In this document: positions 54,394 through 64,000 of the stretch, piece by piece | Position numbering within the stretch: the stretch's first letter is position 1 | How the letters are laid out: every line of letters starts with the position of its first letter | Source: Armatimonadota bacterium | GTDB taxonomy: Bacteria; Armatimonadota; HRBIN16 | NCBI GenBank assembly: GCA_942492855.1 | Contig: OW818647.1 | Coordinates: 2,486,264-2,550,263 of the forward strand | Length of the DNA stretch: 64,000 bases | Direction: 5' to 3' | Position numbers and translations under genes: made by a program | The notes under the pieces: model-generated | Databases searched by the model: none | Seen by the model: only the letters and a program-made list of their open reading frames with translations | What the model was told of the DNA's origin: nothing

Positions 54394-55851
54394 CTATTTC
54401 ATCGCATACAGCCACGCAGGATATTGGTGAATTTCGGAGTTTTGACGGCTTCGTGTTTTGGAATTTGACATAGGATGTATCGACGCTTGTAGCCTTGACA
54501 CGACATCCCCATAGTCACGCTCATTCGGCGAGTCAATTACCTCTTGCCTCATAAACATAGCCAATCGATTAGTCGATAACCTGCCATCAATCGTTCGACG
54601 CTGCCACTTAGGCCTGGGCAGCTCCTCATCCTTCACACCAGAAATTATCGCAGCGAGATGCATTAAACTATATACCCATACCAGAAACGGAATGACATTG
54701 CAGACTGAGTTCTCACACCATACCTGCGGATCACCGATACCAAAGTAGCTTTTCTCCTCACGAAACGCCACCTCCTGCTCCCACCTCCAGATATATAACT
54801 GCACAACCTGTTCAATTGGCATATCTGGATCAGAACACAGGACGTAAGCCGGGTTTCGATATAGTATCCTTCCGTGCTTCCAGAGTCTATATGGTGTTGG
54901 TGCAACCACGATCAGTCTGAAATCTTGAGCTCCTACCCCTCTCCATCTCACTCGGTCGACGGTCTTGATCCTCACAACGTGGAATTTGCCAGACGAGTAA
55001 ACGCATATGTGTTCCCATTCATATGAATCGTCCTGTCGTATCAGGTCAGGCTTGGGTACAGGGTCTCCATATACACGTCGCTTTCCAGTTTTTGGCTGCT
55101 TGTCTGGCAGTTTCGTCAACTTGGCATCACGACGTAACCGTCCAATGATCGTGGTGTTCTCCGGGATTTTAGTCAACATGGTCTTGTTCATGTAACCTCC
55201 ATCTACCGTTAACACAAGCCGCCTGTGCCTTGAGTTTGGGTCCTCATCCATTCTTTCGCGTAGCTCCTTCATGGCGTCAGCCCCCACCTTGGTAACCCGG
55301 CAGGCCTTCTGGTCCGTCTTGTATTGGCTGCGCTGCTCGTCAGTCGCTTTCGGACCTGGCTTCTTGGGAGTAGGTGCGTGCAGCATGTTAATAGGGATAG
55401 CAGTGGCCCGGCTATGATATCCGTTGAAGGGGACAAGAGCTGATAACTGAACACAACGCTGACCATGTATGAAGTTCGGGCGGTATTTTGGCCCTTGAGG
55501 GTCTCTACGTAAGGAGACGCCATGCCCCTTTGTCCCTTTGCGCGGGATTATCGTATCATCCATCGCGACAACAAACGGCATGTTCTCTGGAGTGAGGCTG
55601 ATCGCTTGCTGTAAAACGGTGTCCCAGCACTGGGACACCGAGATACGGTTTTGTTCAAAGATGCGGTAATACGCTGACCAGTCTTTGTCAGCCTGACCAG
55701 CTGTCTGGATGATCCCTGTGATTGTGTGTCTTCCGACGGTTGCCGTGGCCGCCAGAGCGATCTGCTGGGACTTTTCATAGGTTCGCTGTTGGTTAAACGC
55801 ATCGCGTGCCAGTTCATAGAGAAGCATAAATGCAGGCAATACTTTGCTCAT
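54394..55851 (-). CDS. IS4-family DDE transposase
   Basis: 485 aa with the C-terminal YREK signature block LYIWRWEQEVAFREEK (Y-x2-R-x3-E-x6-K), typical of IS4/IS701/ISH3-type transposases. Confidence 0.8.
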   Translation of the reverse strand: MSKVLPAFMLLYELARDAFNQQRTYEKSQQIALAATATVGRHTITGIIQTAGQADKDWSAYYRIFEQNRISVSQCWDTVLQQAISLTPENMPFVVAMDDTIIPRKGTKGHGVSLRRDPQGPKYRPNFIHGQRCVQLSALVPFNGYHSRATAIPINMLHAPTPKKPGPKATDEQRSQYKTDQKACRVTKVGADAMKELRERMDEDPNSRHRRLVLTVDGGYMNKTMLTKIPENTTIIGRLRRDAKLTKLPDKQPKTGKRRVYGDPVPKPDLIRQDDSYEWEHICVYSSGKFHVVRIKTVDRVRWRGVGAQDFRLIVVAPTPYRLWKHGRILYRNPAYVLCSDPDMPIEQVVQLYIWRWEQEVAFREEKSYFGIGDPQVWCENSVCNVIPFLVWVYSLMHLAAIISGVKDEELPRPKWQRRTIDGRLSTNRLAMFMRQEVIDSPNERDYGDVVSRLQASIHPMSNSKTRSRQNSEIHQYPAWLYAMK

Positions 55852-56455: not shown

Positions 56456-58723
56456 TTACTTCGTCTGGACGGTTAGGCGCTTCATGTCGGCGTCGGTCAG
56501 TGTCTCCTGGCCTTTGGGGCCGATCTCCACTGCGTTGTTGTTGGCGAGAATCGCGCGCACATTGCCCAGCGTTGAGTACTGCGCCAACTTGGGGTAGGCC
56601 TTCAGCAGCTTGAAGTGCGCGTCGGAGAACTGCTTGATCTGCATCGCCTTCTGGTCAGGCATCAGACCCGCGTCCTCCCAGAACTCACCGCGCTGGTAGA
56701 AGGTGCGCGAAGCCACATTCTGTACGTTCGCCACAATCACGGTGCGGTCGTAGGCGTCCTGGTAGGTGCCGCCGATGCGTCGGTTGGCTGCCGTCTTGCC
56801 GAGTTGGGTGGAATTGGTCATGCCGCTGGCGGGCATATTCAACATTCCAGGGGCCTGGGCAGCGTTTTTGCCGCTGTTGGAGTTGGAACTCTGGGCGACG
56901 CTGTAGGCTCCGGTGGTGACATCTGCTGCCTCAGCCGACTGCTGGCGCATCTGCACGATGCCCATCTGTAATTGGGCCTCAGTCTTGCGCTCATCCGCCA
57001 GGAAGGACGTGTATTCGGTGGGTATTCCATACTTCTTGGACAGCCGCACCACCTCGTCAATCAGCTCCTGGTTGGAGTGCAGCCGGATCTCGTCCAGCAG
57101 GTAGCCGATTTTACGCGAGGCCCATAGCTGGGCGATGAACTGATGCGCATCTCCGCTATCGGGCAGACGGCTTTTCAGCACGAAACTCTTCTTCTGGTCA
57201 CCCGCTGTGCCTTTGAGGATCACTTTGACATCGCCTGAGCCCTGGTAACGACCGAGCACGATGAGCTGGGTGCCGGTGAAGATATCGGGCAGGTCGGTGT
57301 TGGGGTATCTATCACTGGTCTTGAGCCCCTGGATTTCCAGAGTCACGTCCGACAGCAGGGGGTCGCTGACTTTGGCAAAGAAGGTGCTGATTTTGGCCTC
57401 GATGCTCTCCCTCGGACGCACATAGTCACTCGCACCGCGGTTTTGCTCCGAGAGTTTGTCCAGCAGGTGGGTGTTCACATCGTAACCCACACCGAACACG
57501 AACATCCGCGCTTTGGAGTTCTTGGCATTAGTCAGAATGACCTGCGGGTCCGTGTTGCCGGCCGTGGGCTGACCATCGGTGATGAAGATCACATAGTTGT
57601 TTGCTGAGTCGACGCTTGAAAACTGCTTGCGTGCGCTGATCAGGGCATCGTTGATGTTGGTGCCACCCGTTGCATCGAGCTCCTCAACCGTGCCGAGGGC
57701 CTTTTTACGGGTGTCGATGTTGAATTTCTGCAGCCCCGGGAACAGCAGGTCGGGGGTTTCGTTGAAGGTGATCACGTTGAAACTGTCCTGCGGCTTCAGG
57801 GAGTTCAGGCAGAAGGTGAGTGCCTGCTTCGCCTGATCCATTTTTTCGCCAGCCATGCTGCCGGTGCGGTCCAGAACGAAAACTACATTCTTGGGCTGCA
57901 CTTTGGCCTTCGCCACTTCCACACGCGGGCTGGCCAGAAGCATGTAATAACCGGGCTCACCGGGCTGTTTGTGCGCCACAAGATCGATGCCGACATCGTC
58001 ATCTGAAACCGAGTAGAACAGCTCCATATCCGTATCCGGCGTGCTGTTCTTAACCGACCAGGTCACGGTGGCCTCGCGGTCAGAGGTTCGGTCTACCAGC
58101 ACTTGATGGGTGGGCGAATAGACGCTGGTGATCGGTCTGGTGGCACTGATCTTGATGGTGACTTTGCAGTCCTCCAGCGGCCGGGCGGAGAACCGCTCCG
58201 TGCTGAGGGGGTAGACGTATCGGCAGACGTTGCCGGTCTTCTTCACCACCTCCGCGTAGCTTAAGCGAATCCGCTTATCACCATTCGCGGGGATGGGGTA
58301 GACACGCGCGCGGAAGGTGTTGCGGCCGATGTATTCCAGTATCGCCGGGTCTTTGCGCTGCCTGACGATGGATTCGTATATATTTCTGGCTTCGTCTTTA
58401 TCAAGTATCTTGCCAAGTATCTCTTCCTCACCGGCATACATGGAGAACTTGGTGATGGCGGAACCCTCCGGCATTGGGAATATGTACATACCCTCGCGGT
58501 CCACACCGCTGTCGTTGTGGAATATCTGGTCGACCTTAGTCGTGCAGAGTTGGTCCTGGATGTTGACATTCACGTGATGGTATTTCACGGTGAATAGTTC
58601 CTTGGGCATCATGATGCTGGTATTGGGCCGTTCGATGGGGAAGATCATACCATCTGCCAATGCGCCGATACTGACCAACATAGACAGCATCAGTATGGGG
58701 ATTACGTATTTTCGTGCCTTCAT
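56456..58723 (-). CDS. Secreted VIT + von Willebrand factor A (VWA) domain protein
   Basis: The ATG at 58723 is preceded by GGAGGA, and the signal peptide is MKARKYVIPILMLSMLVSIGALA. N-terminal VIT-like region. VWA MIDAS motif in NVVFVLDRTGSMAGEKMDQAKQAL ... ATGGTNINDAL. Confidence 0.7.
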   Translation of the reverse strand: MKARKYVIPILMLSMLVSIGALADGMIFPIERPNTSIMMPKELFTVKYHHVNVNIQDQLCTTKVDQIFHNDSGVDREGMYIFPMPEGSAITKFSMYAGEEEILGKILDKDEARNIYESIVRQRKDPAILEYIGRNTFRARVYPIPANGDKRIRLSYAEVVKKTGNVCRYVYPLSTERFSARPLEDCKVTIKISATRPITSVYSPTHQVLVDRTSDREATVTWSVKNSTPDTDMELFYSVSDDDVGIDLVAHKQPGEPGYYMLLASPRVEVAKAKVQPKNVVFVLDRTGSMAGEKMDQAKQALTFCLNSLKPQDSFNVITFNETPDLLFPGLQKFNIDTRKKALGTVEELDATGGTNINDALISARKQFSSVDSANNYVIFITDGQPTAGNTDPQVILTNAKNSKARMFVFGVGYDVNTHLLDKLSEQNRGASDYVRPRESIEAKISTFFAKVSDPLLSDVTLEIQGLKTSDRYPNTDLPDIFTGTQLIVLGRYQGSGDVKVILKGTAGDQKKSFVLKSRLPDSGDAHQFIAQLWASRKIGYLLDEIRLHSNQELIDEVVRLSKKYGIPTEYTSFLADERKTEAQLQMGIVQMRQQSAEAADVTTGAYSVAQSSNSNSGKNAAQAPGMLNMPASGMTNSTQLGKTAANRRIGGTYQDAYDRTVIVANVQNVASRTFYQRGEFWEDAGLMPDQKAMQIKQFSDAHFKLLKAYPKLAQYSTLGNVRAILANNNAVEIGPKGQETLTDADMKRLTVQTK

Positions 58724-59185
58724 GGGTTCCTCCGGTTCTCCTTCGGGCCTCGCCCGCCTTGCTGGAAGTGCGATGAACAGAGAATATGACGATATCACGC
58801 GTGAAAAGTTTCAGGTGGGTTTTTGGAGGGGATTCCAACGCAAAGGCGAAGATGCGCAAGGGACGCAAAGGGGAATGCCTCACACGGAGACGCGGAGAGC
58901 GCGGAGAGGGCAATGACCGCGGGGTGGCCATGTCCGGGGCTGTTTTGCGTATAGGGCGGTTCGCGAAACGTCCTTCGGCGTGGCCTAATGCGCGGTGTGG
59001 CGATTGGCATCACAAGGTCGAATGCTTGACAACCATATCTGAAAAGGGTACAAATAGTCAGAGCAGTCTAGGAGTATACAAGTTGCCCTCCCTTTGATAC
59101 AAGCAAATAACCATTCAATGGGGCCGCAATTTGCACCTCATTCTAGAATTATGTTGACATCCCACCGTCAAAGGAGGGTGAAGAT

Positions 59186-59728
59186 TTGAGTAATCGACAA
59201 GTATTTATCATTGTGGCTGTGTTTTGTGTCGCGGGTATTGTTTTTATGGCGTGGTTTGTCCCTTTGATCATTGAGACCAAACGCACTGTGCATATGTACA
59301 TCCATTTACCTCAAAACTACGTGCTTTATCAGGTTGAAGCCTCTGGCACACAGTTTGGAGCACGTATCGAAAACAAGGATGAACAGTTTCACGTAGATCC
59401 CGATAACGGCCTGCGGCGTATGGTTGGTCCCAACATCGGTGGTTATCATGTTTATTCGAAGATAATAACAGGACAGATTGTTCCGCACAGGAATGACGAT
59501 ATCTATGGACAACCCCCTGAACCTAGAATTGGCTATTTTAGCGACCGGCGATTGGGTTATTTTATCATCGACCTGCATACAAAGAAGGTACTGGGTGGCT
59601 TAAACAAACGAGACTGGCGTAAGAAGCTCAGAACATATGGGATAACCACCGAACCTGTTCTATTCAAACCTTCTTGGAGGGACGCAGATTTGGGACGTAA
59701 CAAACCGCAAGCATACGACGCACAGTAG
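59186..59728 (+). CDS. Hypothetical membrane-anchored protein (single N-terminal TM), lower-GC gene
   Basis: A TTG start preceded by AAAGGAGGGTG. N-terminal hydrophobic helix FIIVAVFCVAGIVFMAWFVPLII. No known motifs. Local GC is noticeably below the window average. Confidence 0.35.
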   Translation: MSNRQVFIIVAVFCVAGIVFMAWFVPLIIETKRTVHMYIHLPQNYVLYQVEASGTQFGARIENKDEQFHVDPDNGLRRMVGPNIGGYHVYSKIITGQIVPHRNDDIYGQPPEPRIGYFSDRRLGYFIIDLHTKKVLGGLNKRDWRKKLRTYGITTEPVLFKPSWRDADLGRNKPQAYDAQ

Positions 59729-59873
59729 GTGGGCAACTAAATGGCGTCTATGGGTAGTCTGGCGGTTGACCTCGAGGTCCTGGCTCACGCGGAGACGCGG
59801 AGAAGCGGAGAGCGCCTCCCCATCCGCGAAATCCGTGGTTCAGACAAGTCCCGCGTCCCATCTCATCAGCCGA

Positions 59874-60842
59874 CTACCACTCAAGGATGACTTTAATCAC
59901 ACCGCTGGATCGGTCGCGCATTAGGCGGAAGCCCTCTTCAAAATAGGAAGCTTTCAGCCGATGGGTGATCAACCGCTCAAGCGGAACCACGCTCCTCTCG
60001 GCCAGCCGAACGGCTTCCGACCAGGCACCCGCGCTGGCGTTGCTGCCGATGAGGGTTATCTCATTCCACAACATGTGGTTCCAGAGCGTGGTGGGGTGCG
60101 AGTCGCCGTAGTCGCCAACCTCTAGCACCTTCCCCTGTTTCGCCACTACATGCAGCGAGGCGTCCATCGCCTTGGGTGAACCTGAGGCCTCAATCACCAC
60201 GGGGAAATCCATCCCTGTGTGCTTCAAGATGCCGCCGACAAGATCGCCATCGAAATCATGATAGTTCATTGTGCTTCCGGCGCCAAACTCACTTGCGATA
60301 TCAAGCCGGTATTGCCGCCCGCCCACGAGGATCACATACAACCCCTGCTGTGCTAACAAGGAGCACATCATGAGGCCTATGGGCCCGTCACCGATAATCA
60401 ACACCGGGTCTTCAGTCACTTCACCCAGTCGGTGGAGTGCATGAACCGACACGGCCAGCGGTTCGATCAATGCAAGGGTGAGGAAGGGGATATCGGATGG
60501 CACAGGATGAACATTCGCGGCCTCGGTCAGCAGATACTCCGCATACCCCCCCGGGTGCTCAAAGCCGACCTCAAGCCCGTCAGCCAGCACGTTCTCCGCC
60601 ACGCACCGCTTGCCGCCCAATAAAAGATCAACGCCCTCACCCACAGCATCTACTGTTCCCGACCACTCATGGCCCGGTATGGCAGGAAACCCGTTCCGCT
60701 CCCAGCCGGCCACCATCTGAAGGTCGGTGGCGCAGATGCCCACCGCTCCGGTGCGGATACGCACCTGGCCTGGGCCTGGTTCGGGTTTTGGCAGCTCCAG
60801 CATCTCGAGGCGGCCCGGCCCCGTGTTGACTATCGCTCTCAT
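59874..60842 (-). CDS. Zinc-binding MDR-family alcohol/polyol dehydrogenase
   Basis: The GHEWSG catalytic-zinc motif (GHEx2G), a Rossmann region IIGDGPIGLM, and the overall MDR pattern. 322 aa. Confidence 0.75.
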   Translation of the reverse strand: MRAIVNTGPGRLEMLELPKPEPGPGQVRIRTGAVGICATDLQMVAGWERNGFPAIPGHEWSGTVDAVGEGVDLLLGGKRCVAENVLADGLEVGFEHPGGYAEYLLTEAANVHPVPSDIPFLTLALIEPLAVSVHALHRLGEVTEDPVLIIGDGPIGLMMCSLLAQQGLYVILVGGRQYRLDIASEFGAGSTMNYHDFDGDLVGGILKHTGMDFPVVIEASGSPKAMDASLHVVAKQGKVLEVGDYGDSHPTTLWNHMLWNEITLIGSNASAGAWSEAVRLAERSVVPLERLITHRLKASYFEEGFRLMRDRSSGVIKVILEW

Positions 60843-61873
60843 GGATTGATGACCACCTTATTCCGCTCCGAGGAGCCCATCACATCACACGCCTTGTGGA
60901 TATCGGAGAGGGAGAAGCGATGCGAGATGATCTTCTCGATGTCGATCAACCCGGTCTCCATCAGCCGGATCGCCTTGCTCATGGCTAGCGGGGTGGTTCC
61001 GAAACTGGCATCCATGCGCCCCTCCAGGAAGTGGGTCAGACCACCGTCCAGCTCGAATTTCTCGTGTGTGGTGATGCCAAACACATTCCAGCGCGTGCCG
61101 CGGCGGCGAAGGTCGACCATCAGCTTGACGGCCTGGATTGGGCCTGCCGCTTCCACCACCAGGTCGGGACCGTGCGGGATGATCTCGTAAACGCGCTGCT
61201 TCGCATCCTCTTTGGCGGGGTTAATCACGTGCGTGGCTCCCAGCTTCATGGCGTGCTCCAAGGCGTATTCGCTGGTGTCGATGGCGATCAAACGGCCCGC
61301 ACCGGCCGCTTTGGCCACCATCATGCAGAGTAGCCCGATGCTGCCCACACCGATGATCACCACGTCGTCGCCCACCTGCATCTCGGAATACTGGATCACG
61401 CCCTTCCAGGCACCTGACAGCGGCTCGGTGATGGCGGCAGCATCAAACGAGAGGTTGGCGGGTTTCGCGAACAGGGTGTTCTCTTTGGTCTTCATATATT
61501 CGGCAAACGCGCCTGGCCACACATCAACGGGGCCGTCCCCACCGGTGGTGAAGGCGTGCTCGCAGTAGTGCGGGTTGTTCGTGCGGCAGTGGCTGCAATA
61601 TCCGCAGTATCCAGAGGGCTGCACGATCACCTCGTCACCCACCTTGAAGTGCGTCATGCCCGGGCCCACCTCGTGGACGATGCCGCTGGGCTCGTGACCC
61701 ACGATGGAGGGGAACTGCACGTTCGTGCGGATACCCTTGATGGCTTTATAATCTGTCGCGCAGAACCCGCACGACTTAATCTTCACGACGACCTCACCAA
61801 AGCCCGTGGCACGGGGCATCGGCACCTCTTCCAGTTCCAGTTTGTTGAAATCTTTCAGCACGGCAGCTAACAT
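60839..61873 (-). CDS. Zinc-dependent MDR alcohol dehydrogenase (threonine/sorbitol-dehydrogenase-like) with structural-zinc Cys cluster
   Basis: GHEPSG, the structural zinc site CGYCSHCRTNNPHYC (C-x2-C-x2-C-x7-C), and the Rossmann motif IIGVGSIGLL. It overlaps the upstream dehydrogenase by 4 bp, consistent with an operon. Confidence 0.75.
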   Translation of the reverse strand: MLAAVLKDFNKLELEEVPMPRATGFGEVVVKIKSCGFCATDYKAIKGIRTNVQFPSIVGHEPSGIVHEVGPGMTHFKVGDEVIVQPSGYCGYCSHCRTNNPHYCEHAFTTGGDGPVDVWPGAFAEYMKTKENTLFAKPANLSFDAAAITEPLSGAWKGVIQYSEMQVGDDVVIIGVGSIGLLCMMVAKAAGAGRLIAIDTSEYALEHAMKLGATHVINPAKEDAKQRVYEIIPHGPDLVVEAAGPIQAVKLMVDLRRRGTRWNVFGITTHEKFELDGGLTHFLEGRMDASFGTTPLAMSKAIRLMETGLIDIEKIISHRFSLSDIHKACDVMGSSERNKVVINP

Positions 61874-61956
61874 GGGATCATTCCTCCAGATCGGCCCGCT
61901 TCACACAGGCCGTTTATGTTATACCTTGCTGTCGGTGGAATGGCAAATGGAGGGGA

Positions 61957-62268
61957 TCAAGACTCCAATGTTTCATCAGCCGAAGTATACGCTTGATCTG
62001 GACGAGTCAGTCGGTCAGGATACTTCAAACGCAAACGGCCGCTGTTCACCATACTTGACAGGTATTTTTGGCGTATATAGTGACTATCTCTGTCCACGAA
62101 CGAAGCAATCTGGTCGGCTCTCAGGAACCTGCCGCGACACAAACGCACTATTACCTCTTCCATATCTTTGGAGTTGATCTTTCCTGGCATTTTGACCTGG
62201 GGTATCAGTTCACCTGCATCACCATTGTGGAGTGTGACTTCATCATGATGAGTTGAACTGCCGTCCAA
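61957..62268 (-). pseudogene. Possible gene remnant encoding a C-terminal winged-helix-like segment in an AT-rich region
   Basis: A 103-aa ORF in low-GC DNA. EEVIVRLCRGRFLRADQIASFVDRDSHYIRQKYLSSMVNSGRLRLKYPD resembles the C-terminal wHTH of larger Fic/AlbA_2-type proteins, but no N-terminal portion is present. Confidence 0.2.
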
Positions 62269-62581
62269 ATGTGAGGATCCTTGCCCAAGAGTGAGGAGTA
62301 GGTGTTCATGGGTAATTCAATAACCTGACATGGCCGTTCGCGTATCACGTGAAACAAACAGCACCAGTCGGGTGTATGGGGGTCATGTATATATACCTAA
62401 ACTAACATGGGATCATTACTCTAGATCGGTCCGCTTCACACAGACCGTTGATGTTATACCGTGCTGACGGTTGAACAGCCAATGATGTCATCGGTTGTGT
62501 TGTGAAAAATGCTGTTGATCACATAATATGCATGCAGTTTTATTTGATACAGAAACCAACATGTAAAATCACACCACAAAC

Positions 62582-63991
62582 CTATGATTTGTTTTTGGGG
62601 ATATCACCAGTATCAGCTTCCATATCGGTTAATCCACGCATCAGGTAGATCCGTTTCCTTTGATATAGCCAGAGCCTAAAATCTCTACTAGAGGTCCTAA
62701 CCGAAAAACCATAAATCAAGCTAACAATAGATATCGAACAAAAAATCCACGCAAAGGATTTGAGCACAGTGTTAATCATGCCATTCGGCACTGTCAGAAA
62801 AAAGCCACTATATGCAGATAATACAATTATTACACGTAAAATCCATGCAACTATCTTTGACCATTTATCTGCGTATCGATTACTGGTATCGTTTATATTT
62901 CGTATCATCAAGGAATTCGCATAACGAGCCTTTTCTAGTGCACGTTGAGTATCGTTTAATTGGTCTTCAGTGACTTGCTGTTTATGGTCACGCTCTTGAA
63001 TTATCTCATCATATTGAACCTTTTGCTCTTCTTTGATTTCATCTGTAACCCTTTGTAAAATTTCTATTGCGGTTGCTTCACTAAGTGCTTTATCATCACC
63101 TAAAGTGAGATGCACAAGTTCCTGCCTTACATTTAGGTTGCATCTTAGGAGCTGATGGTCTTTGGCTGTGATCGTAGCTTTATCTTCTAGTTTTCCGATT
63201 TCTACGATAAATTTGTTAAGTAATTTCTCAGAAGGGCCCAATGCTGCATACGAAAAAGCTATCACTTCTTTTTTTGGTAGATCAGGGAATTTCATTGGAG
63301 CTTTCAGCCAGGCCATATTTGCTAGGCTGTATTCTGATATCACACTCGATACAGCACGAGATGACTCAAACTTCTTTCCATATTCATATGCCACTTGGGC
63401 AAAGCGAGAGTTGCATGTTACAAGGACTGCTTTTGACCGTTCAAGAGTACTCGGCGACGTATAACCTCTTAATACATAAATGCTACGGACAGAGTTGACA
63501 TCGCAATCCTTAGCACATTCATTGTTATACATGAGTTCGTCTCCGAGTGACCTGGAAAACACTGCCTCATCTATCTGGAAATTCATATCATACGGTGGTG
63601 TTGACCGAATATGTATCCCCATCTCTGCAAGCGAATCATCTATACGACCAGCGATCATAAGTAAATCGGATCTTGATGTACCTCTTAAACGCGCTTCTTG
63701 TATGATGCTACCCCTTCCATCATCACGATCTAGGTACGTCGCTGAACTTGAGATAACATTTTCTAACTCGTCTCGAGTATGGCTAAATACCGCCAGATTG
63801 CCTCCAAGTTGAACTAGCAATTCCATTAAGTCGTGTGTGACTTCTTGTTTCTCCTCACCTTCGAGCCCAAGCCTTCGAATCAGCAAGGGTGTATCAAAGT
63901 AAAATGTTACGTTCCTGAATGTCGATGACACATCCTTTAGGTCTTGACACAGAAGAGAGTTCGCTAGCATGTGCCCTTGGACAAGGATCAT
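62582..63991 (-). CDS. Large hypothetical protein in AT-rich island, C-terminal coiled-coil plus two TM helices; N-terminus may extend beyond window end
   Basis: At least 469 aa, GC ~40% against ~60% elsewhere. The frame stays open past 63991 to the window edge. C-terminal KIVAWILRVIIVLSAYSGFFLTV ... FAWIFCSISIVSLIYGF form two hydrophobic helices, preceded by a charged coiled-coil-like segment. Confidence 0.4.
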   Translation of the reverse strand: MILVQGHMLANSLLCQDLKDVSSTFRNVTFYFDTPLLIRRLGLEGEEKQEVTHDLMELLVQLGGNLAVFSHTRDELENVISSSATYLDRDDGRGSIIQEARLRGTSRSDLLMIAGRIDDSLAEMGIHIRSTPPYDMNFQIDEAVFSRSLGDELMYNNECAKDCDVNSVRSIYVLRGYTSPSTLERSKAVLVTCNSRFAQVAYEYGKKFESSRAVSSVISEYSLANMAWLKAPMKFPDLPKKEVIAFSYAALGPSEKLLNKFIVEIGKLEDKATITAKDHQLLRCNLNVRQELVHLTLGDDKALSEATAIEILQRVTDEIKEEQKVQYDEIIQERDHKQQVTEDQLNDTQRALEKARYANSLMIRNINDTSNRYADKWSKIVAWILRVIIVLSAYSGFFLTVPNGMINTVLKSFAWIFCSISIVSLIYGFSVRTSSRDFRLWLYQRKRIYLMRGLTDMEADTGDIPKNKS

Positions 63992-64000
63992 GAAGTAGCC

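Follow-up and report, generated by a model that had tools for sequence, protein, structure and literature searches.

Near the end of a 64,000-nucleotide stretch of the genome of an Armatimonadota bacterium (assembly GCA_942492855.1, contig OW818647.1, positions 2,486,264 to 2,550,263; hereafter the window), an AT-rich segment of about 2 kb holds most of a large protein-coding gene, here called gene X. A first reading of this DNA, made without database searches (the sequence-only reading), took the segment for a likely horizontally acquired island and X for its possible defence cargo. This raises two questions, namely what the X protein does and how its gene came to lie beside a pair of alcohol dehydrogenase (ADH) genes. 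Here, we find that X is intact and belongs to a protein family that is very large and has not been described, and that in other genomes this family is embedded in the operons of two unrelated methylase-based defence systems, Type I restriction-modification (R-M) and Hma. That X acts as an oligomeric nuclease effector anchored in the membrane, forming an anti-phage second line beside restriction, and that it is carried on an island inserted upstream of the ADH operon, is in our judgement about as likely as not.

Gene X and its protein family

The large open reading frame (ORF) of the segment (62582..63991) stays open to base 64000, with 472 uninterrupted codons inside the window. The sequence-only reading had recognized both the frame and its openness at the edge; its strand is here corrected to minus, and the missing 186 amino acids are therefore the N-terminus, containing a predicted winged-helix domain, which lies beyond the window. 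A protein search recovered the full-length product (P0001, 658 aa), which is 100% identical to the part encoded in the window.

Relatives of X are abundant. Among 8,000 candidates scored, more than 1,067 relatives (clusters at 90% identity) were found at E<=1e-3, and the best 120 relatives are nearly all ~640 aa long and 43-58% identical to X. A profile search of 1.84 billion representatives gave 4,213 clusters at 50% identity with E<=1e-3, 1,895 of them with E<=1e-30. The sources of named relatives include GN15, Kiritimatiellae, Armatimonadetes, Chloroflexota, and Gemmatimonadota, and family members occur in many phyla at a flat ~45% identity. Only two viral contigs with an X gene were found, and an exact 42-mer of X had no match in the metagenome and viral contigs scanned.

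No significant match was obtained in Pfam, NCBIfam, PADLOC, or PHROGs with the window fragment, the full protein, or 40 family members, and PDB sequences gave none either by single sequence or by profile. The PADLOC check proposed in the sequence-only reading thus matched no system model above threshold, in a library (PADLOC-DB v2.0.0) that does recognize the HmaA, HmaB, and HmaC neighbours of X homologues described below. The sub-threshold PADLOC matches were to PD-Lambda-3_B (E 0.009-0.04) and to LeoBC (2.5e-5, in 3 of 40 members, on the coiled-coil region). Both were rejected as the family of X, as were DUF2207_C and SCO2584_fam, all four matches being sub-threshold or compositional only.

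Domain architecture

The architecture of X was examined with two AlphaFold2 models, one of the full-length protein (40-sequence alignment, mean pLDDT 67) and one of residues 187-500 (120 sequences, pTM 0.71, mean pLDDT 70); residue invariance and membrane segments were counted over 132 diverse members of the family. The winged-helix N-terminal domain (residues 1-140), predicted to be cytoplasmic, was modelled confidently. Residues 400-500, which include the conserved segment W417-L-K-x-P421, are predicted to be helical and are highly conserved and poorly modelled.

Residues 215-410 probably form a PIN-like nuclease domain with helical insertions, as far as models of moderate confidence can indicate. 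In the domain model, five strands of parallel type (218-221, 254-258, 316-318, 377-381, and 406-408) alternate with helices, and four residues placed around them are invariant in 132 of the 132 members, among them plasmid copies with 21-26% identity: D222 after strand 1 (codon 63893-63895), E264 in the helix after strand 2 (63767-63769), D353 in the helix after strand 3 (63500-63502), and N383, part of T381-x-N383, after strand 4 (63410-63412). In the PIN superfamily, an Asp after strand 1, a Glu in the helix after strand 2, and an Asp after strand 3 are strictly conserved, and a fourth acidic residue after strand 4 is less conserved. In the predicted fold, D222, E264, and D353 correspond to these acidic residues, with an Asn (N383) in the fourth place. 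The copy of X in this genome keeps all family-invariant residues. The sequence-only reading had seen no recognizable enzymatic motif in this protein, a statement that is not upheld in view of the putative PIN-like domain and its invariant D-E-D-N set.

Structural comparison points in the same direction. With both the full-length and the domain models, the top Foldseek matches in PDB were 2fe1, 1v8o, 7og5, and VapC, with PAE0151, PAE2754, and HARP RNase P among them, at weak scores (prob 0.97-0.99, TM(target) 0.55-0.60, E 0.08-0.3). In a viral structure library, the full-length model had a "PIN like domain" protein as its top match (E 7.9e-3).

Toward the C-terminus, the charged, coiled-coil-like segment and the two transmembrane helices already noticed in the sequence were recovered, the former as an AlphaFold2 helix and the latter by hydropathy. 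Kyte-Doolittle peaks fall at residues 578 and 603-611, the full-length model has two further helices there (H593-616 and H620-648), and a basic C-terminal tail follows the hairpin. Two C-terminal hydrophobic segments are present in 116 of the 132 relatives, including all four plasmid homologues at 21-26% identity.

Genomic context in other genomes

The surroundings of X homologues were compared in a sample of 79 loci from other genomes, drawn from many phyla with one genome per species. Neighbouring ORFs were clustered, cluster representatives were checked against Pfam, and hidden Markov models (HMMs) were built from the HsdS, HsdM, and HsdR clusters. HsdS was found in 38 loci, HsdM in 33, and HsdR in 32, with at least one of the three in 42 of 79. 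All three partners share the strand of X: HsdS directly precedes it, HsdM lies further upstream, and HsdR follows, giving the order hsdM-hsdS-X-hsdR. In five loci (L004, L011, L016, L028, and L035), X begins before hsdS has ended, and hsdR in turn begins before X has ended.

Among loci outside Type I R-M operons, X is found beside other defence genes. It lies between HmaC and HmaB in L043, between HmaA and HmaB in L037, and after HmaB-HmaC on a viral contig (L086); it adjoins a Ppl homologue in L057 and an N6_N4 methylase in L015. On the other viral contig (L087), hsdM-hsdS-hsdR are found just downstream of X. Distant homologues on plasmids of Enterococcus and Klebsiella are solo genes amid insertion sequence (IS) elements, recombinase genes, and resistance genes, that on a Pantoea plasmid is solo except for a small downstream ORF, and that on a Hymenobacter plasmid stands beside Type III-like R-M and CHAT proteins. 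Taken together, the context in other genomes (Type I R-M in 42 of 79 loci, Hma in three, Ppl, and plasmid R-M/CHAT) lends support to the initial suggestion of defence or abortive-infection cargo, and makes the family a strong candidate for a role in defence, as judged from its neighbours.

A conserved small antitoxin-like partner of X was found in none of the 79 loci, the upstream neighbour being hsdS or an unrelated gene. In Pantoea piersonii and Hymenobacter, an ORF of 137-138 aa lies directly 3' of X on the same strand (L083:9061-9477 and L085:9132-9545). The Pantoea ORF has a weak, sub-cutoff HEPN_RiboL-PSP match (E 9e-5), and this ORF may be a partner gene in the distant plasmid subfamily.

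Comparison with known systems

The closest parallel in gene order is PrrC. The prr locus has the order hsdM-hsdS-prrC-hsdR, and X homologues share this operon slot; in the window, no hsdR lies downstream of X. Both X and PrrC/RloC are single-protein candidate nuclease effectors. PrrC and RloC combine an N-terminal ABC-type ATPase with a C-terminal anticodon-nuclease domain. In contrast, X is without an ABC-ATPase domain and without a PrrC/RloC match in PADLOC or Pfam, and instead has a winged helix, the predicted PIN-like domain, a coiled coil, and a membrane hairpin. PrrC is hardly ever found outside Type I R-M operons (10.1101/2024.01.29.577857); about half of the X family lies outside R-M operons.

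PIN nucleases (VapC, PAE0151/PAE2754, and HARP RNase P) are the best structural matches to residues 215-410 of X and share D, E, and D in canonical positions. The domain of X differs from them in having no detectable sequence-profile similarity, helical insertions of ~60-90 residues, an Asn as the fourth residue, and a fusion to a winged helix, a coiled coil, and membrane helices. In addition, X has no small co-transcribed upstream antitoxin gene, unlike VapBC.

When a gene is embedded in a Type I R-M, BREX, DISARM, or Hma operon, it is often a defence gene (10.1101/2024.01.29.577857). Several described candidates resemble X in being embedded in Hma or Type I R-M operons, in having a PIN-like or NYN nuclease, and, in some cases, in consisting of a single protein; these are HEC-03B (PIN), HEC-09 (HTH+NYN), the PDC candidates, and DS-3 and DS-5, which are published PIN-based defence systems (PMC13092281). 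HEC-09 gave no protection in its authors' own tests (10.1101/2024.01.29.577857). X is set apart from the HEC and PDC candidates by matching no model of PADLOC v2.0.0, which, judging from papers that report PDC-S matches, should include the PDC models. Identity with DS-3 (340 aa) or DS-5 (PIN protein of 376 aa) was ruled out by length and architecture, and an hhalign comparison of the X family with the DS-5 PIN protein was also negative. Accessions of X homologues do not occur among the entries consulted from the supplementary tables of the embedding study.

TgvAB, a GmrSD-like Type IV system in the Type I R-M operon of Vibrio cholerae VPI-2, is an experimentally shown precedent for an anti-phage system that lies inside such an operon, is independent of restriction, and complements it (PMC11411939). 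TgvAB differs from X in being of the DUF262/DUF1524-type family, in consisting of two genes, and in not being membrane-anchored. The literature supports the general embedding rule and not the X family specifically. X appears to represent an uncharacterized, very common protein family that is tightly linked to restriction operons, and none of the compared systems joins a membrane anchor to a nuclease-like domain as X does.

Proposed function and alternative explanations

If X is a nuclease effector of the kind proposed here, it would stay inactive in uninfected cells. On infection, the PIN-like domain would act as the catalytic module and cut nucleic acid; RNA is the usual PIN substrate. The coiled coil would mediate oligomerization, and the hairpin would anchor the protein at the inner membrane. 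Activity would be gated by infection, and the trigger may be inhibition or loss of the restriction complex, as for PrrC.

A more elaborate version of this proposal, to which we would attach a low probability, is that X is a widespread guard effector, co-translated with Type I R-M or Hma subunits, held inactive at the membrane by the intact complex, and freed when phage anti-restriction proteins disable that complex, thereby aborting infection. To our knowledge, very few genes nested in restriction operons are understood mechanistically, and PrrC alone is known to guard the restriction enzyme. If the guard version were true, the logic of PrrC would have been reinvented with an unrelated, membrane-anchored protein in thousands of genomes and most bacterial phyla. 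More generally, if X acts in defence as an effector, bacterial immunity would gain a common component that has so far gone unnoticed, and there would be a second, independent case in which to study how cells sense the inhibition of restriction. Genes nested inside restriction operons are a productive source of new anti-phage systems.

Several observations weigh against the effector proposal: (i) the case for a defence role of the family comes entirely from genomic context, and about half of the loci (37 of 79) are without Type I R-M nearby; (ii) hsdR is absent downstream of X in the window, and no HsdR, HsdM, or HsdS was found in the 64 kb, so that coupling to R-M cannot be shown at this locus; (iii) the PIN assignment depends on models of moderate confidence (mean pLDDT 67-70) with weak Foldseek E-values (0.008-0.3), no PIN family was among the Pfam or NCBIfam matches to X even at E<=1, and neither a PDB profile search nor hhalign against a PIN_12 protein found a PIN link; and (iv) the fourth catalytic position is Asn instead of Asp.

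The last of these points also bears on an alternative in which the membrane hairpin, and not the PIN-like domain, does the killing. X would then oligomerize through the coiled coil and depolarize or permeabilize the membrane, while the winged-helix and PIN-like domains, the latter reduced to a sensor or regulatory fold, would bind a nucleic-acid trigger. Abortive-infection systems commonly use effectors that disrupt membranes, the hairpin of X is conserved family-wide, including in the most distant members, and it is preceded by a long helix suited to oligomerization; the replacement of the canonical fourth Asp by Asn in 132 of 132 members fits as well. Nevertheless, the three acidic residues and the Asn never vary across >75% divergence, as is typical of a working active site, and a two-helix hairpin with a short loop also fits a simple anchor. 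We consider this alternative unlikely.

The second point concerns the present genome in particular. The sequence-only reading had expected partner genes, if any, beyond the window; the normal downstream partner, hsdR, is absent here and not merely out of view. X could accordingly be a stranded relic on an eroded island that has lost hsdR and perhaps other partners, and would now be neutral, decaying cargo. The absence of hsdR, a gene present downstream of X in 32 of 79 loci, the lack of any R-M subunit in the window, and the gene fragment and decayed duplicate promoter immediately downstream of X (see below) are what such a relic would be expected to show. On the other hand, the ORF is unbroken through all 472 visible codons, the deposited protein is full length, and all family-invariant residues are kept. 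Moreover, as 37 of 79 loci are without Type I R-M and the plasmid copies examined are solo beside IS elements or recombinases, the family appears able to stand alone. Decay of X in this genome seems quite improbable to us.

The overlap of the X start and stop codons with both hsdS and hsdR in several operons suggests co-translation and a fixed stoichiometry. This would suit an accessory subunit that tethers Type I R-M and Hma complexes to the inner membrane or positions them there, or that regulates restriction through its winged helix. Such a subunit would explain why X joins a membrane anchor to a DNA-binding-type domain and why it is embedded in two unrelated methylase-based systems. This role is nonetheless very unlikely, given that about half of the loci are without such a system, that the Enterococcus, Klebsiella, and Pantoea plasmid copies are solo, that classical Type I R-M works without any X-like subunit, and that tethering needs no invariant nuclease-like site. 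Finally, X might serve mobile elements as an addiction or exclusion gene, either toxin-like or acting in surface or superinfection exclusion, and would then travel with R-M by shared mobility and not by cooperation. The solo copies on plasmids of Enterococcus, Klebsiella, and Pantoea, which sit amid IS elements and resistance genes, could be read in this way, as could the low GC and the scattered phylogeny, which point to mobility. It is an idea we can hardly credit, since no antitoxin-like small partner is conserved beside X in the main clade and X sits specifically inside operons, between hsdS and hsdR.

The island and its boundaries

The features of the window end are collected in Table 1. 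From the stop codon of X (62582) in the 3' direction, they follow one another as a 97-nt spacer, repeat copy B, the 103-aa ORF, repeat copy A, and the ADH gene, which is the first of a pair with 59874..60842.

Table 1. Coordinates of gene X, its domains, and the features between gene X and the ADH operon
Feature	Position in window	Strand	Description
Gene X, 3' 1,419 nt	62582..64000	-	Residues 187-658 of 658-aa P0001 and stop codon
Predicted PIN-like alpha/beta domain, residues ~215-410	63329..63916	-	AlphaFold2 domain model, Foldseek, and invariant residues
Long charged helix, coiled-coil-like, residues 494-586 (93 residues)	62801..63079	-	AlphaFold2; runs into first membrane helix
Two hydrophobic helices, membrane hairpin, residues ~569-590 and 597-619	62702..62854	-	Hydropathy
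Spacer between X stop and repeat copy B	62485..62581	.	97 nt, AT-rich, GC 0.34
Repeat copy B	62402..62484	-	Decayed duplicate of ADH promoter, leader, and first 7 nt of ORF
103-aa ORF, pseudogene remnant	61957..62268	-	3' fragment (C-terminal winged-helix-like tail) of AlbA_2/HATPase_c_4 ("RNA-binding domain-containing protein") gene
Repeat copy A	61867..61949	-	Working promoter-like region, leader hairpin, GGAGGAA ribosome-binding site, ADH ATG; host-side junction of island
Zinc alcohol dehydrogenase (ADH), host flank	60839..61873	-	Pfam ADH_N and ADH_zinc_N; GC 0.60, GC3 0.79

The fall in GC content of about 20 points from 61.9 kb, noticed at the outset, was borne out both by 400-nt windows and by the GC content of third codon positions (GC3). 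In 400-nt windows, GC is 0.60-0.62 over 60.4-61.8 kb, as it is over the two ADH genes (59.9-61.8 kb), and then 0.37-0.44 over 62.4-64 kb. The overall values are 0.424 for 61900-64000 and 0.408 for gene X, compared with 0.564 for the entire window. X is the lowest 1.4-kb stretch of the window (GC 0.399 vs a mean of 0.566, standard deviation 0.036, i.e., 4.6 standard deviations below), and its GC3 is 0.36 vs 0.70-0.79 in adjacent genes. A composition deviating from that of the flanks, which is one of the criteria for genomic islands, is thus found at 61.9-64 kb.

Of the bounding elements that the sequence-only reading had proposed to look for, a direct repeat (83 nt) was found whose two copies bracket only the gene remnant, any copy at the far end of the island falling outside the window; there were no tRNA genes in the 64-kb window and no recombinase or integrase among the ORFs of 61.9-64 kb, the window ending inside X. 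A single mobility gene was seen in the window, encoding a DDE_5 transposase some 6 kb away. No terminator-like sites were detected in the spacer or at the island edge, and a promoter scan at the island edge gave no excess of predictions over shuffled sequence. The view that 61.9-64 kb is a horizontally acquired island, put forward from composition at the start and here placed just upstream of the ADH operon, is supported by four lines of evidence, namely the extreme composition, the gene fragment, the att-like duplication of the ADH 5' region, and the spread of the family across phyla at flat identity.

The 83-nt repeat and the gene remnant

The two copies of the direct repeat, which the sequence-only reading had not noticed, are identical at 72 of 83 positions (87%), lie 535 nt apart, and enclose the 103-aa remnant alone. 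Pairwise alignment identifies the repeat as a duplication of the ADH promoter, leader, and start, with homology ending exactly 7 nt into the ADH ORF. In copy A, a -35 hexamer TTGCCA and a -10 hexamer TATAAC separated by 17 nt can be read by eye; they fail the rule of the scan, which needs a T at -10 position 6. In copy B, the -35 hexamer and the Shine-Dalgarno sequence are degraded, and the reading frame from ATGTTAG reaches a stop after 3 codons.

A leader hairpin (61888-61915 and 62423-62450, minus strand) is kept in both copies, with a G-C pair in A and a compensatory A-U pair in B. This conservation may be due to chance, as there is a single covarying pair and the folding z-scores are only -1.7. 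The repeat had no Rfam match at E<=1, its conserved core was found only in the two copies of the window, and the exact core had no match in the metagenome and viral contigs scanned; a known RNA or a dispersed repeat was ruled out by the Rfam result and the confinement of the core to two copies.

The 103-aa remnant reported in the sequence-only reading proved to be a true gene fragment, on the minus strand. By BLASTP, its residues 22-97 align with residues 605-679 of the 679-aa protein WP_013512549, the match ending at the last codon of that protein, which has an SLFN_AlbA_2 domain and a sub-cutoff HATPase_c_4 match. Because the alignment covers the last 75 residues of a 679-aa protein, the ORF would be the 3' end of a gene expected to be six times longer. 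Against plasmids, tblastn gave matches at E 4e-7, 4e-5, and 3e-5, always within AlbA_2/HATPase_c_4-type genes.

Genes of this type also occur in the context sample. A 580-aa SLFN_AlbA_2/HATPase_c_4 gene is embedded upstream of X in five Type I R-M loci (L017, L023, L026, L028, and L040), in L023 and L028 between hsdM and hsdS, and these five operons therefore carry two inserted genes. A specific tie between the remnant and the AlbA_2 genes of these loci could not be drawn, since a small HMM of the five misses the remnant and only the broader protein type is established.

The repeat and the remnant resemble what site-specific insertions, one after another at a single hotspot, would leave behind. 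An element with its own copy of the ADH 5' region may have integrated at the ADH site and then decayed to 452 nt, and the X-bearing island would be the second occupant of the same hotspot. The window would thus mark an integration hotspot upstream of the ADH operon.

Other low-GC features of the window

A second low-GC patch (59000-59780, GC 0.456) lies between the ADH pair and a gene for a VIT and von Willebrand A protein. It holds a 180-aa ORF (59186..59728, plus strand) with an N-terminal hydrophobic helix and without a Pfam or NCBIfam match, flanked by short direct repeats at 58876-58902 and 59781-59815 that are 90-91% identical and 905 nt apart. The patch 58876-59815 may be another small insertion.

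The DDE_5 superfamily transposase (485 aa, 54394-55851, minus strand, Pfam E 2.6e-18) represents an IS element and stands in a lower-GC stretch of its own (54.2-56.4 kb, GC 0.43-0.52). The VIT and von Willebrand A protein (780 aa, 56456-58798, minus strand) adjoins the low-GC patches and has a host-like GC3 of 0.75.

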